Shown here in pieces: positions 928 through 6,032 of a DNA stretch of 64,000 nucleotides. A program made the position numbers and the translations under genes. Source of the DNA: Candidatus Bathyarchaeota archaeon (GTDB taxonomy: Archaea > Thermoproteota > Bathyarchaeia > Bathyarchaeales > Bathycorpusculaceae); assembly GCA_963777155.1 (NCBI GenBank), contig CAVZPM010000002.1:11658-75657 (forward strand), read 5' to 3'. The notes beneath the pieces were generated by a model, which had not been told where the DNA came from, did no database searches, and saw nothing but the letters and a program-made list of their open reading frames with translations. Positions within the stretch are counted from its first letter, which is position 1. Each line of letters opens with the position of its first letter.

Positions 928-1806
928 TTGAAATTTGGAATAATGACGCGGAACATGGAAGCCTGGAGCTCTACTCAAGTTCGAGAAGCCCTAACTAAAC
1001 GAGGGATTCCATACGAATGCTTCACTTTCCCACGTCTTGTGGCAAGACTTGCTTACAGACCTTACTTTAAAGTCAATGGTACAAGTATTTTAGATGAATT
1101 AGATGCACTAATCATTCGCCCAATTGGACGCGGTTCATTAGAGGAATTGGTTTTCCGCATGGATATGCTCTACAAGCTTGAGCGCCAGGGATTCTACATG
1201 GTTAACCCGCCGACCGCCATCGAACACTGCGTCGACAAATATGACATTTTAGCGCTTCTAGAAGACGTTGGTGTCCCTGTACCTCGCACTTTAGCCACCG
1301 AAAGCGTAAACGAAGCCATAAAAGCATTTCATGAACTCGGAGGCGACATAGTTGTTAAACCCATCTTCGGCTCACGCGGACAAGGAGCCACACGCGTAAA
1401 TGATATAGACATCGCCGACACGGTCTTCAAAGCCATAACCTTCCACCATGGCGTTATCTACATGCAAGAATTCGTACCTCACGGAACCTCAGACATACGA
1501 GCCTTCGTTATCGGAGACCAAGTCGTTGCATGCATGCGCAGGGTAGCTACAGGATGGAAAACAAACTATAGTCAAGGAGCCAAACCGGCACCAGCAACGA
1601 TCAGTAAAGAATTTGAGGAAATAGCTGTTAAGTCAGCTAAAGCAGTAGGCTGCAAGATTGCTGGCGTAGATATCCTTGAGGGACCAGACGGTCCTCGCAT
1701 CGTAGACGTAAACAGCCAACCCGGCTGGAAAGGCTTGCAGGTAGTTGCAAAAGTTAACATTGCCGAAGAAATAGTCAACTTTGTGTTGACAGAACTGAAA
1801 AAATAA
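928..1806 (+). CDS. RimK-family ATP-grasp alpha-L-glutamate ligase (MptN/CofF/LysX-like)
   Basis: Motifs DK, VVKPIFGSRGQG, YMQEFV, DIRAFVIG, WKTNYSQG, GVDIL, DVNSQPG. Confidence 0.9.
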   Translation: MKFGIMTRNMEAWSSTQVREALTKRGIPYECFTFPRLVARLAYRPYFKVNGTSILDELDALIIRPIGRGSLEELVFRMDMLYKLERQGFYMVNPPTAIEHCVDKYDILALLEDVGVPVPRTLATESVNEAIKAFHELGGDIVVKPIFGSRGQGATRVNDIDIADTVFKAITFHHGVIYMQEFVPHGTSDIRAFVIGDQVVACMRRVATGWKTNYSQGAKPAPATISKEFEEIAVKSAKAVGCKIAGVDILEGPDGPRIVDVNSQPGWKGLQVVAKVNIAEEIVNFVLTELKK

Positions 1807-2811
1807 TTACTTGCCTGACAAGAATCAGAGTGTAGGGGTCATCGGCGACCTGCGGAAACTGTGTTTCTTTTCCTTTCTTTATTAGAACCCGTTCCTTGTT
1901 TTCTTTAAATTCACCTAGAAAGTAAGCAGATAAGCCATACTTGGCTAATGAGGCAGTGACTTTTTCTTGCGCTTTAGGAGAAACAGCCGCCAAAATCGTA
2001 CCCGTCGAAGACATTGACAACATTTGCTCATCTGTGAGGTTAAAGTGTTGTTTTAGGGCATAGACTTCCTTTGGGAAACGAGATTTTTTCCCAATCAACC
2101 CTTAACCCAACTTTCGATGCCTCAGCCAATTCGTTGAGAGCTGCCACAAACCCGCCTTCAGTCGCATCATGCATTGCATGCACGTCTTCAATTTCCGCAA
2201 GCTGAAGAGCCTCTCTTACACAGCTTTGCATGTGAACCAGTTTGGCGAGTTTCTCTTGTGTGTTAACTCCGAAGAGTTCTTGCGCTTCTTCCTTGTGAGT
2301 GAGTGAAAAGTTGGTTATTGTTTCTAAACCCAAGCGGTTTTGTGCACAAAATCAAATCACCTGCCTTGGCGTTTCCCGGCGTAATCAATTTTCGTGGTTC
2401 TACAGTTCCGTAAACCGTGCAGACACCGAGCATATCTTTGAGGCTGTCGTACATTCCTGTGTGTCCACGAACAATTGCAACGCCTAATTCGTCGACAGCT
2501 TGGCATGTTTGCTTCATGATTTTCTGGAAAACTTCTGGTTTTGTCCCTTTTGGTCCAAGGAGGTTTATTGTGCAGAATTCTGGTTTAGCCCCAAACAGCG
2601 CTACATCCGAAGCTGCATAATGTAATCAGAAGCCATCCAAACCACTCTTCAGGCACTCCCAGTGCATGGGTCCGTTGCAACCGCCACGTACTTGCCATGT
2701 AAAAGATGGACTCCTGCATCATACCCAATCATGGGCGGAACGATTACTCGAAAATCCTTCTTTATACAACTAAGCAATTTTTGGAGATCTTCGATTCGAA
2801 AGTTTCCCCAT
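1807..2811 (-). CDS. AIR synthase-family (PurM/HypE/ThiL-like) protein, broken by several frameshifts
   Basis: Stitched fragments: MGKLS...GYDAGV...VATDPC...AASDVALFGAKP...VRGHTG...KAGDLILCTKPLG...AMHDATEGG...SSTGTILAAV. Confidence 0.8.
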
Positions 2812-2825
2812 ATTTCTCATTCTCC

Positions 2826-3381
2826 TTAAATATAAATTTTTAGTACCTTGCTTTTCTGTAGTAGGCCTATTAATAGCACTTATTATCATGTTCGGGTACG
2901 AGGTAACTTCCGTTGTAGACTGCTGAGTAAAGCATGGGCTCATACCTTCAGGCGCATATGAGGCAAAGATAGACGACGCCTGAAACAAAATGCAGATGAA
3001 GCGTCCTGTAATTCCAACGACGACGCCAGCGACTGGCACTTTTTGGAAGAACCCTGCAAATCCAAGCACACCGAACGGCAGTGTATAATCCAGAGCACTG
3101 AGGTAGAAAATGGGTTTGACGACAAATGACTGCGAGCTGCAACAAACCCGAATACAGCGCCTGCGAATATACCAATTTTGGCTCCCGTCTTAAAGCGCAA
3201 GCCAAATTATAGGTACCATCCAAGGTGTAATTGAGCCTCCTTCGTGGCTAAAAACGAGTGACTGACATAAGCTAAGGCCCTGCCAACGCCACAAATATTG
3301 TTATTTCTGCGAGGATTTTGTTGGATTGTATGTTGTCTTTAAATATTTCTTAGGGTTAGGTTCAGTATTGGTTGTGTTCAA
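2826..3381 (-). CDS. thiT: Energy-coupled thiamine transporter S-component ThiT (many frameshifts)
   Basis: Manual translation across frames: KILAEITIFVALA, EGGSITPWMVPIIWLAL, GAKIGIFAGAVFG, LDYTLPFGVLGFAGFF, GRFI, HFVSGV, FASYAPEGMSP, YSAVYNGSYL. TTG start at 3381 lies right after a TPP riboswitch. Confidence 0.85.
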
Positions 3382-3385
3382 GTTT

Positions 3386-3484
3386 GTTTTTCCCTCCGCC
3401 AGTATTACCTGGTTCAGGTTCCTAAGGGTCGACAGCAAACAGCCGTCCTCTCAGCCAGGTCACTTTCCCAGCTCCCCAAGAACT
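3386..3484 (-). ncRNA. TPP (thiamine pyrophosphate) riboswitch aptamer
   Basis: Minus strand reads GGGGAGCTGGG-aaagtga-CCTGGC-TGAGA-GGACGGC-tgttt-GCTGTC-GACCCTT-AGGAACCTGAA-CCAG-GTAATA-CTGG-CGGAGGGA. All conserved THI-box elements are present (P2 GGGG/CCC, P3, UGAGA, P3a, ACCUGA, P5 with UAAU loop, GCG.AGG), upstream of thiT. Confidence 0.95.
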
Positions 3485-3539
3485 AATGGGATAATGTTTT
3501 TAGGTGATATTTTAGTTTTCCTACCCAAACACTAACGAG

Positions 3540-6032
3540 TTGATTAGCATGCAACCTATGCCTAAGGAATACAATTTTGCTGAAATCGAGCGGAAATGGC
3601 AGAGCAAATGGGAAGAGATGGGTATCTACCACTACGATTGGAATGATAAGCAACGAGTGCCCTACAGTATTGACACGCCACCTCCTTACCCTTCGGGCGA
3701 ACTCCACATGGGCAACGTCCTCAACTGGACATACTTTGACATGGTTGCACGCTACAAACGAATGCAAGGCTACAACGTGTTGTTTCCACAGGGTTGGGAT
3801 TGCCATGGTTTAGGTATAGAAATCCAAGTGGAAAAGTCAAGAAACATCCGCAAACGTGACATCCCCCCAGACCAGTTCCGGTCATGGTGCATCGAGCTTG
3901 TTGAGAAATACATCGCCATGATGAAGGAAGGCATCCTTAAAATGGGCGCCAGCATTGATTGGACTACTGAATACAAAACGATGGATCCCGACTATTGGCG
4001 CCGCACACAACTTAGTTTCGTGTTGCTACACAAGAAAGGTTTCATGTACCAGGGCACACACCCCGTTAACTGGTGTCCCCGAGATGAAACCGCGATCGCC
4101 GACGCAGAAGTTGACCACATAAAAAAGGAAGGCACCCTGCATTATATTCGGTTCCATCTTGAAGGCAGCAGTGAATACCTACTAATTGCCACGTCACGCC
4201 CCGAATTTATTCCAGCATGCGTTGCTGTTGAAGTAAATCCAAAAGACGAACGCTACAGCAAGTACATTGGCAGAAAAATTTCTGTACCCCTTATGAACCG
4301 CGAAGTAACCATCATTAGTGAGGAATCAGTGGACCCGAGTTTTGGCACAGGCGTTGTCCAAATCTGTACTTACGGCGATAAAGAGGATGTAAAGACAGTA
4401 ATAAAACACAAACTTCCCGTTATTCGACTCCTTACTGAAAGTGGAAGAATTAGCGAAGCTGGCTGTAAATACTCGGGTTTGTATGTTAACCAAGCGCGTG
4501 CAGCAATCGTTGCCGACTTAACAACTGCTGGACTGCTGGAAAAGACAGAAAAGATACAGCAGGAAGTGGGCGTTTGCGATCGTTGCAAAGCCCAAGTCGA
4601 AATTCTAGAGGTTAAACAATGGTTCATGAAAACCATGCCCCTCTCTGAAGCTGTGGAAAAAAATGCTAATGAGATTCCGTGGTATCCCGATTATATGAAA
4701 AACCGTTTGATCGACTGGACACGGGCTTTGGATTGGGATTGGGTTGTTAGTCGCCAAAGACTGTTTGCTACGCCCATTCCTGTTTGGTACTGCAAGAGCT
4801 GCGGAGAAGTTGTAGTTGCTGAGGAAAGCTGGGTGCCAATTGACCCTCGAATGGAGAAACCTCGAATTGACAAGTGCCCCCGATGTGGCGGCGCCGATTT
4901 CACTGGGGAAACCGACGTGTTGGATACATGGATGGATTCCTCAATCACATGCGCGGTCCATGCGGGCTGGCCAGACCGAGCTGACTGGAAGCACCTATTC
5001 CCAGCGAGTGTTCACCCATCAGGTACAGACATCATCCGAACTTGGGCATACTACCTCATGGTACGCCACCTAGCCTTGTTCGACCAGCGCCCTTTCAACA
5101 GCGTCCTCATAAACGGCATGGTATTAGGTGCAGATGGCAGAAAAATGAGCAAATCACTGAAGAATTACGTTGCAGCTCCAGAAGTTTTGAATAAAAGTGG
5201 TGCTGATGCAACTAGGCAGTGGGCTGCTGGTGGAGGAGCAACAGGTTCAGATATTCCTTTCCGCGCCCAAGATGTCGAATATGGCAGACGCTTTTTGGTA
5301 AAACTGTGGAACGTTACTGGGTTTGCAAGTAACCTCTTAGCAGACTATAACCCCAAAGCCAATGCGGAAGTTGATCTGCAGCTACTTGATAAATGGATTC
5401 TCAGCAAAACGGAGAACTTGATTAAAAAAGTTACAGAAGCCTTCGAAAAATGCCAATTCAACATCGCAGTCGAAGAGATCCGTAACTTCACCTGGCACGT
5501 CTTCTGCGACTACTACATTGAATCAGTGAAGGATAGACTATATCATCAAGAGGAGGAGAACGCACCGAAAAGGCGAGCTGCTCAACGGACCCTTTATGAG
5601 GTACTGTACAAAATTCTGCAGTTGCTAGCACCAATAACTCCTCACTTAACTGAAGAAATCTATCAAAATATGTACGCTGATGATAAAGGTTTCAAAAGTT
5701 TACAGATAACCCTTTGGCCAAAGGTAGACAACGCCCTCGTCGACGAGACAATAGAAGAGGAAGGAGATAAAGTGATGGCTTTAATTGAGGATGTGCGAAG
5801 AAAGAAAGCGGCGCAAAAGTTGCCATTAAATATTCCCGTTTTGTCCCTTGACGTCTACGCGGGAAATGAAACAAGCGCCAACCTAATCATTTCAAGCAAA
5901 GAAGATATTGCAGGGACTCTCAAAGTTGTAGGTAATTTTAACGTTATCCCCAAAGCTGGTCAAGGCCAAGAAGTGCCACAATTTCCAGGGGTAATTGCTG
6001 TTGCTATCTTCGGGGCGGTAACCAAGAAATGA
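3540..6032 (+). CDS. valS: Valine--tRNA ligase
   Basis: IDTPPPYPSGELHMGN (HIGH), GWDCHGL, DWVVSRQR, DTWMDSS, KMSKS; archaeal type. Start may be ATG 3549. Confidence 0.96.
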   Translation: MISMQPMPKEYNFAEIERKWQSKWEEMGIYHYDWNDKQRVPYSIDTPPPYPSGELHMGNVLNWTYFDMVARYKRMQGYNVLFPQGWDCHGLGIEIQVEKSRNIRKRDIPPDQFRSWCIELVEKYIAMMKEGILKMGASIDWTTEYKTMDPDYWRRTQLSFVLLHKKGFMYQGTHPVNWCPRDETAIADAEVDHIKKEGTLHYIRFHLEGSSEYLLIATSRPEFIPACVAVEVNPKDERYSKYIGRKISVPLMNREVTIISEESVDPSFGTGVVQICTYGDKEDVKTVIKHKLPVIRLLTESGRISEAGCKYSGLYVNQARAAIVADLTTAGLLEKTEKIQQEVGVCDRCKAQVEILEVKQWFMKTMPLSEAVEKNANEIPWYPDYMKNRLIDWTRALDWDWVVSRQRLFATPIPVWYCKSCGEVVVAEESWVPIDPRMEKPRIDKCPRCGGADFTGETDVLDTWMDSSITCAVHAGWPDRADWKHLFPASVHPSGTDIIRTWAYYLMVRHLALFDQRPFNSVLINGMVLGADGRKMSKSLKNYVAAPEVLNKSGADATRQWAAGGGATGSDIPFRAQDVEYGRRFLVKLWNVTGFASNLLADYNPKANAEVDLQLLDKWILSKTENLIKKVTEAFEKCQFNIAVEEIRNFTWHVFCDYYIESVKDRLYHQEEENAPKRRAAQRTLYEVLYKILQLLAPITPHLTEEIYQNMYADDKGFKSLQITLWPKVDNALVDETIEEEGDKVMALIEDVRRKKAAQKLPLNIPVLSLDVYAGNETSANLIISSKEDIAGTLKVVGNFNVIPKAGQGQEVPQFPGVIAVAIFGAVTKK

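Follow-up and report, generated by a model that had tools for sequence, protein, structure and literature searches.

In bacteria, thiamine is salvaged through operons under thiamine pyrophosphate (TPP) riboswitches that carry thiT or genes in the order thiM-thiD-thiE. ThiT imports thiamine, and the kinases ThiK, ThiM, and thiamine pyrophosphokinase (TPK) act on the phosphorylation side, so that an importer is combined with a trapping kinase. ThiL, the thiamine-monophosphate (TMP) kinase, is a member of the PurM superfamily. Two other members, HypE and SelD, activate a carbonyl oxygen or selenide, and the C-terminal cysteine of HypE carries its substrate. Many archaea import thiamine, and to our knowledge no enzyme has been described that converts thiamine to its phosphate in lineages without TPK and ThiK. 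Soils, peat, and sediments harbor abundant Bathyarchaeia. Trapping by phosphorylation is a known logic of another thiamine carrier, PnuT (PMC5749112). In the present study, we analyzed a stretch of 64,000 nucleotides (hereafter the window) from a Candidatus Bathyarchaeota archaeon (GCA_963777155.1, contig CAVZPM010000002.1, positions 11,658 to 75,657), in which a TPP riboswitch, thiT, and a gene for an AIR-synthase (PurM) superfamily enzyme follow one another on the minus strand. The reading that we favor, tentatively and at slightly less than even confidence, is a three-part salvage operon composed of the riboswitch, ThiT, and an ATP-dependent thiamine kinase, in which the breaks in the reading frames are an artefact or very recent damage. 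The arrangement follows the importer and trapping-kinase logic of the bacterial operons; however, ThiK, ThiM, and TPK have folds unrelated to that of the candidate kinase, whose host is an archaeon. The operon and the thiamine-linked family to which the enzyme belongs are real and absent from the literature searched; the full texts, which did not cover some of the work on archaeal ThiN/ThiR, contained no link between an AIR-synthase-family protein and ThiT or archaeal thiamine salvage.

The riboswitch aptamer lies upstream of thiT at 3374-3488 (minus strand) and belongs to Rfam RF00059, which it matches over the full length of the model (1-105; score 60.8 bits, E 2.9e-10), above the gathering score of 54.3. 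No further TPP riboswitch was found in the genome of the window (G000; 2.29 Mb, 90.6% complete). The gene for ThiT, the S component of an energy-coupling factor (ECF)-type thiamine transporter, occupies 2826-3381 (Pfam Thia_YuaJ), and the enzyme gene 1807-2811 (Pfam AIRS and AIRS_C fragments); both are on the minus strand and both copies are broken. Orthologs of the enzyme measure 331-338 aa. The thiT stop codon TAA (2828-2826) is followed by GGAG (2825-2822) and the enzyme ATG (2811-2809) on the same strand, which leaves a spacer of 14 nt (2812-2825) as read from the sequence. An earlier reading, made from the letters of the window without database searches (the sequence-only reading), had described an AIR-synthase gene shortly behind the thiT stop, on the same strand and under the riboswitch, and the junction and the Rfam match bear this out. 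It had also named a separate promoter for the enzyme gene as an objection. Since only 14 nt separate the two genes, no intergenic promoter fits. The junction is equally tight in orthologous loci.

A GGAGGG tract (3397-3392), the likely ribosome-binding site of thiT, lies within the 3' strand of the outer helix of the aptamer. In the fold of an intact ortholog leader, in which the likely site stands 8-9 nt before the ATG, GAGGG of this site is paired with 5' CCCCU in the outer helix. This pairing fits translational control of thiT, and we infer that the TPP riboswitch acts in this manner. The identity of thiT is clearer in relatives than in the broken copy. A 99-aa fragment of the latter scored 21.9 bits against Thia_YuaJ (PF09515), and the cut-off of 25.8 was exceeded (38.6 bits) only when one TAA was read through. 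The intact ortholog (P0002) scored 126 bits against TIGR02357 (cut-off 108.45) and 145.6 bits against the Pfam model, and is a ThiT protein.

The order riboswitch-thiT-enzyme is strongly conserved across one order of Bathyarchaeia. With a 114-aa piece of the enzyme as the query, we searched 60 relatives, of which 36 belong to the genus and 24 to other families of the order. Clear orthologs (E < 1e-30), most with open frames of 331-348 aa, were present in 35 of them (29/36 in the genus and 6/24 in the other families), and the genus member G015 additionally has a broken copy. ThiT was found in 30 of the 36 genus genomes. The two genes occur together, with thiT and the enzyme both present in 30/36 genus genomes and both absent from the same six (G004, G011, G016, G021, G023, and G028), four of which are at most 71% complete. 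Gene order was compared in three sets of loci that overlap in genomes and hence are not independent. thiT is located upstream of the enzyme gene in 19/19 genus loci, 79/80 further Bathyarchaeia loci, and 27/27 loci with orthologs in a sample of 401 genomes of the phylum. The riboswitch was detected in 18/19 (Rfam), 76/80 (a profile built in this analysis), and 25/27 of these loci, respectively, and the misses among the 80 further loci are contig ends and locus L061. Conservation of the adjacency in relatives, which the sequence-only reading had put forward as a check, was thus observed in all three sets.

As judged from its sequence, the enzyme belongs to an uncharacterised subfamily of the PurM superfamily, distinct from ThiL, HypE, SelD, and PurM. 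Fragments from the window scored 31.6 bits against AIRS and 53.9 and 23.1 bits against AIRS_C (Pfam), and the motifs YDAGV, TDPCTG, ASDVA, RGHTG, and HDATEGG were all present in the three-frame translation of the gene. An intact ortholog belongs to both domain families (PF00586, 42.9 bits; PF02769, 84.9 bits). It remained below the curated NCBIfam cut-offs for SelD (TIGR00476; 91.5 bits, cut-off 125), ThiL (TIGR01379; 89.1 bits, cut-off 184.15), HypE (TIGR02124; 80 bits, cut-off 251.6), and PurM (38.5 bits, cut-off 236). The genome has its own thiL (246.4 bits), selD (233.8 bits), purM, purL, and hypE elsewhere. The ATP-site motifs of the PurM/ThiL/HypE superfamily and the placement in an uncharacterised subfamily, both put forward in the sequence-only reading, are consistent with these results.

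An AlphaFold2 model built from a 127-row alignment has the two-domain PurM-superfamily fold with a predicted local distance difference test score (pLDDT) of 97; an alignment of 16 close orthologs alone gave an N-terminal domain (residues 1-140) with pLDDT < 50, and the larger alignment was used instead. Foldseek aligned the model about equally well with HypE, SelD, ThiL, and PurM (template modelling scores, TM, of 0.78, 0.76, 0.72-0.73, and 0.69, respectively); none of the solved structures comes from the family of the thiT-linked enzyme. D31, D47, P48, D68, H116, D214, and G219 are invariant in the 127 family members, and an N-terminal Gly-Lys pair is nearly so.

Relatives of the enzyme carry the names "hydrogenase expression/formation protein HypE", "hydrogenase maturation factor", and "AIR synthase-related" in public sources, and the enzyme could accordingly be taken as a hydrogenase maturation factor. 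HypE (2z1e, 3vyt) is the best match among solved structures by sequence (E 3.8e-15) as well as by fold. However, the HypE score lies far under its cut-off, and a true hypE is encoded elsewhere in the genome, with a product that ends in ...PRIC, whereas the C-termini of 16 thiT-linked orthologs have no cysteine. Moreover, nearly all of the loci examined place the gene together with thiT behind a TPP riboswitch, a context of thiamine rather than hydrogenase metabolism. We consider it extremely improbable that the enzyme is HypE.

The thiT-linked enzymes are part of a wider archaeal family. In the 401-genome sample, the orthologs scored 442-648 bits and were confined to the order of the window, and the next matches scored at most 225 bits. 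Matches at E 1e-45 or better, orthologs and paralogs together, were present in 132 of the 401 genomes. Of 63 paralog loci retrieved, 62 contained the gene. Across the phylum, the wider family is independently tied to ThiN/ThiDN and to ECF S-components. The tight same-strand downstream neighbor of the paralogs is ThiN in 13/24 cases, six of which are ThiD-ThiN fusions (ThiDN). The upstream neighbor (n = 35) is an S-component of the PF07155 family in 15 cases and ThiN in four, in addition to one ThiF and one permease of the cytosine/purine/thiamine type. The genome of the window also encodes a paralog of this kind, which directly follows a PF07155 S-component (114.9 bits) and is present on both contigs C11 and C15.

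A quick maximum-likelihood tree of 99 rows, namely 96 family members and the genome's own ThiL, SelD, and PurM, separated the family from these three proteins with a Shimodaira-Hasegawa-like approximate likelihood ratio test (SH-aLRT) value of 99. A tree with ThiL, HypE, SelD, and PurM had been suggested in the sequence-only reading; the present tree places the family apart from the genome's own ThiL. Only one ThiL row was included, the branches are long, and the root is uncertain because the outgroup consists of three long-branched rows. The family falls into a thiT-linked clade (33/33 rows, support 100, with a long stem of 1.13), a ThiN-linked clade (14 rows, support 95), and a third clade of S-component-linked and other members (49 rows, support 93).

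The thiamine pathway of these archaea has a gap at the step from thiamine to TMP. Searches of the genome of the window found no TPK, ThiK, ThiE, ThiN, or ThiC, and matches to Thi4 and ThiD were weak and partial only. The sequence-only reading had asked whether separate thiL or thiN genes exist; a canonical thiL does, and ThiN was not found. Among 61 relatives, TPK was found in none, ThiL in 58, including all 43 high-quality genomes, and ThiC in 13. Only one of the 36 genus genomes has a ThiC match. Outside the genus, all six ortholog-bearing genomes lack ThiC, and the ThiC-positive genomes lack the ortholog. The single genus match (G002:C4:705409-706650, 362 bits) may be a real gene, a transferred gene, or a binning contaminant.

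Since thiamine synthesis is missing, ThiL is kept, and neither TPK nor ThiK was found, the enzyme is most likely a kinase that converts thiamine to TMP; both substrate and chemistry are inferred here from gene context and pathway gaps alone. In the mechanism that we envision, the TPP-bound riboswitch would hide the thiT ribosome-binding site in the outer helix. ThiT would import thiamine, and the co-translated enzyme would use ATP to phosphorylate the hydroxyethyl group of the imported thiamine. The resulting TMP would be trapped in the cell and feed ThiL, which forms TPP. If true, the gap in thiamine phosphorylation would be filled by a kinase of the PurM fold transcribed together with ThiT, a widespread "HypE" mislabel would be corrected, and the known chemistry of the PurM superfamily would be widened. 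In Bathyarchaeia, such a kinase would also mark thiamine auxotrophy and salvage.

The enzyme might alternatively direct its ATP to a phosphate, as ThiL does, either as a second TMP kinase or as a thiamine pyrophosphokinase that makes TPP directly. It shares with ThiL (TIGR01379; 3c9t, 5cc8) the superfamily, a two-domain fold, acidic ATP/Mg motifs, and a connection with thiamine metabolism; furthermore, TIGR01379 is among its best partial matches, and the absence of TPK from the relatives searched would leave room for such an activity. However, the score is far under the ThiL cut-off, the tree sets the family apart from the genome's own ThiL, and canonical ThiL is encoded in the same genomes. 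Since canonical ThiL occurs nearly everywhere, a second TMP kinase would be redundant, and the retention of ThiL in the auxotrophs argues that TMP is an intermediate. We therefore regard a phosphate-directed activity as distinctly unlikely, and the predicted substrate of the enzyme is the alcohol of thiamine, whereas that of ThiL is the phosphate of TMP. The sequence-only reading had left both substrates open. Thiamine remains plausible in organisms that import it without TPK or ThiK and keep ThiL, whereas TMP is unlikely with thiL present in this genome and nearly all relatives.

An enzyme that phosphorylates an alcohol would fit three contexts, namely ThiT with thiamine, ThiN/ThiDN with thiazole, and the importers. 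The sister clades beside ThiN and ThiDN may phosphorylate the free thiazole alcohol in the same manner, and the adjacency of paralogs and ThiDN mirrors the bacterial order thiM-thiD-thiE. Genuine ThiM (full-length, at least 229 bits) was found in 14 of the 401 phylum genomes. The 14 genomes that make up the ThiN-linked clade all lack it, and in 8 of these, ThiL above its cut-off accompanies the ThiN-linked paralog. The whole family, with its ThiT-linked, ThiN/ThiDN-linked, and ECF S-component-linked clades, is a candidate for a hitherto unrecognised class of ATP-dependent vitamin-alcohol kinases with the PurM fold, with a thiamine kinase beside ThiT and a hydroxyethylthiazole kinase beside ThiN. 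We hold this broader proposal to be somewhat doubtful. If true, the family would take the place of ThiK, ThiM, and TPK in Thermoproteota, and it would provide the first alcohol kinase of the superfamily.

Several points weigh against a thiamine kinase. We know of no alcohol kinase in the PurM superfamily, and among solved structures HypE and SelD are closer to the enzyme than ThiL is. The thiT-linked clade has four invariant or nearly invariant cysteines that a simple kinase does not account for. PF07155, the Pfam family of the S-components beside the paralogs, is named for riboflavin, and the family may therefore not be restricted to thiamine. Furthermore, thiT occurs without the enzyme in five genomes (loci L114-L118 in G037, G038, G059, G056, and G048, respectively). 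One of these, G059 (97% complete), has thiT and lacks the enzyme, ThiC, and TPK, so another route to TPP must exist there; it is also the only one of the five in which the in-house profile detected a riboswitch.

Activation of a carbonyl oxygen or of selenide is the chemistry of the nearest relatives with solved structures, and this leaves room for a role in repair or ring closure. The enzyme would then resemble PurM and HypE in spending ATP on the activation of a carbonyl oxygen before a dehydration or ring closure, and its substrate would be damaged or precursor thiamine or thiazole, such as a ring-opened formyl form that is closed again. The proximity in sequence and fold to HypE, SelD, and PurM, the conserved cysteines of the clade, and the ties of the family to ThiN and to importers of uncharacterised specificity all agree with such a salvage enzyme. 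However, this activity would leave the step from thiamine to TMP unfilled in auxotrophs that have ThiT and ThiL and lack TPK and ThiK, and the partner enzymes that such a route would call for were not seen in the operon. We consider a repair function improbable.

The favored reading also covers the broken frames. The sequence-only reading had noted frameshifts and advised their repair from reads or close relatives. They are real and numerous. We aligned the region of the window with four orthologous loci and called six single-base insertions in the enzyme gene (at approximately 2797, 2660, 2622, 2335, 2069, and 1819) and no deletions. In thiT, comparison with the closest ortholog type gave four insertions, seven deletions, and one stop in the reference-guided frame. 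The two genes thus contain 17 indels in 1.6 kb, and no other fragmented gene was seen in the remaining 62 kb of the window. When repaired along the ortholog of locus L015, the enzyme reading has no stops and 271/331 identical residues. It retains 110/110 residues that are invariant among 16 orthologs, at approximately 18% protein divergence.

Contigs from four public soil and wetland sequencing runs, which are other samples and not the source of the window, share 97-99.5% identity with the window in the regions of overlap. They lack one base at 1818, 2079, 2622, 2661, and 2792, corresponding to five of the six enzyme insertions; parts of thiT (3194-3347) were not covered by them. In addition, contigs C11 (1-7682) and C15 (33898-41580) of the genome are 96.5% identical over 7.7 kb and probably stem from two strains that were binned together; such a mixture could have corrupted the local consensus. 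No second thiT was found in the genome, and loss of the operon would be costly in a genome that cannot make thiamine. Since no stops were found, all 110 invariant residues are kept, five of the six inserted bases are missing from the public contigs, thiT is the only copy, and synthesis genes are missing, old decay is less likely. In particular, six frameshifts from long drift are not expected in a gene without stops and with its invariant residues kept. We consider that the breaks are probably errors of assembly or consensus, or very recent damage.

Several points weigh against an artefact. As judged by eye, only two of the six enzyme insertions extend a homopolymer. The operon is also broken in the related genomes G003, G015, and G029. 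The genome's hypE (C15:18870-19967) is in three pieces with two frameshifts (frames 2, 0, and 2), and the near-identical public contigs come from other samples. In the enzyme gene, again as judged by eye, G on the coding strand accounts for five of the six inserted bases; this pattern, mostly G with few homopolymers, is odd for both random decay and homopolymer error.

thiT and the enzyme gene may instead be a genuine, strain-specific pseudogene pair in an organism that takes up thiamine otherwise, for example through the PF07155 S-component and the AIRS paralog encoded elsewhere in the genome. The concentration of the indels in 1.6 kb among 62 kb of intact neighbors, the broken operons of the three related genomes, the frameshifted hypE, and the second pair of S-component and paralog are in line with this possibility. 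On the other hand, all six enzyme lesions are +1 insertions, and the sequence conservation, the public contigs, the near-identical contigs in the bin, and the lack of both synthesis genes and another thiT speak against it. We regard a pseudogene pair as rather unlikely, although it deserves to be taken seriously. The broken frames should not be taken as gene loss before the source reads are checked.

Frame quality was also compared across the genome. Stretches poor in open reading frames (ORFs), defined as at least 1200 nt without an ORF of at least 150 aa, number 106, or 46 per Mb, against 8-12 in the loci of relatives, and long ORFs cover 75% against approximately 86%; this comparison is biased because the loci of relatives were picked around genes. 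Contigs C4, C23, and C37 were the poorest. One ORF-poor region that was followed (C36:125000-139500) is repeat-rich and poorly conserved.

Two intact genes flank the operon. The enzyme-gene stop codon TAA (1809-1807) abuts a convergent gene of the RimK-type ATP-grasp family (928-1806, plus strand; Pfam RimK, 107.5 bits), which is a conserved neighbor outside the operon. On the other side, an ORF of 830 aa (3540-6032, plus strand) is divergent and was named valyl-tRNA synthetase-like by eye, without a family search. thiT adjoins this divergent gene even in the families that lack the enzyme (L114-L118).

The importer itself raised a further idea, namely that the enzyme or a KaiC-like ATPase powers ThiT for want of an ECF module. 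This idea was dropped, as the genome encodes three CbiQ/EcfT-family genes. A KaiC/RecA-type P-loop gene of approximately 240 aa is located between thiT and the enzyme gene in eight examined loci, L094 (2773-3492), L071, L075, L090, L102, L104, L109, and L110; it was identified by Pfam in L094 and by likeness in the others. In a ninth locus, L088, thiT and the enzyme gene are spaced alike. A gene of this type also adjoins the ThiN-linked paralog in two loci (L146:3192-3944 and L148:85-822). In two further loci, a second TPP riboswitch is present just upstream of the operon (L063:1433-2750 and L068:1491-2799), where it governs an S-component of the PF07155 type (43 bits) together with a class I methyltransferase; the S-component may be an importer of a thiamine precursor.

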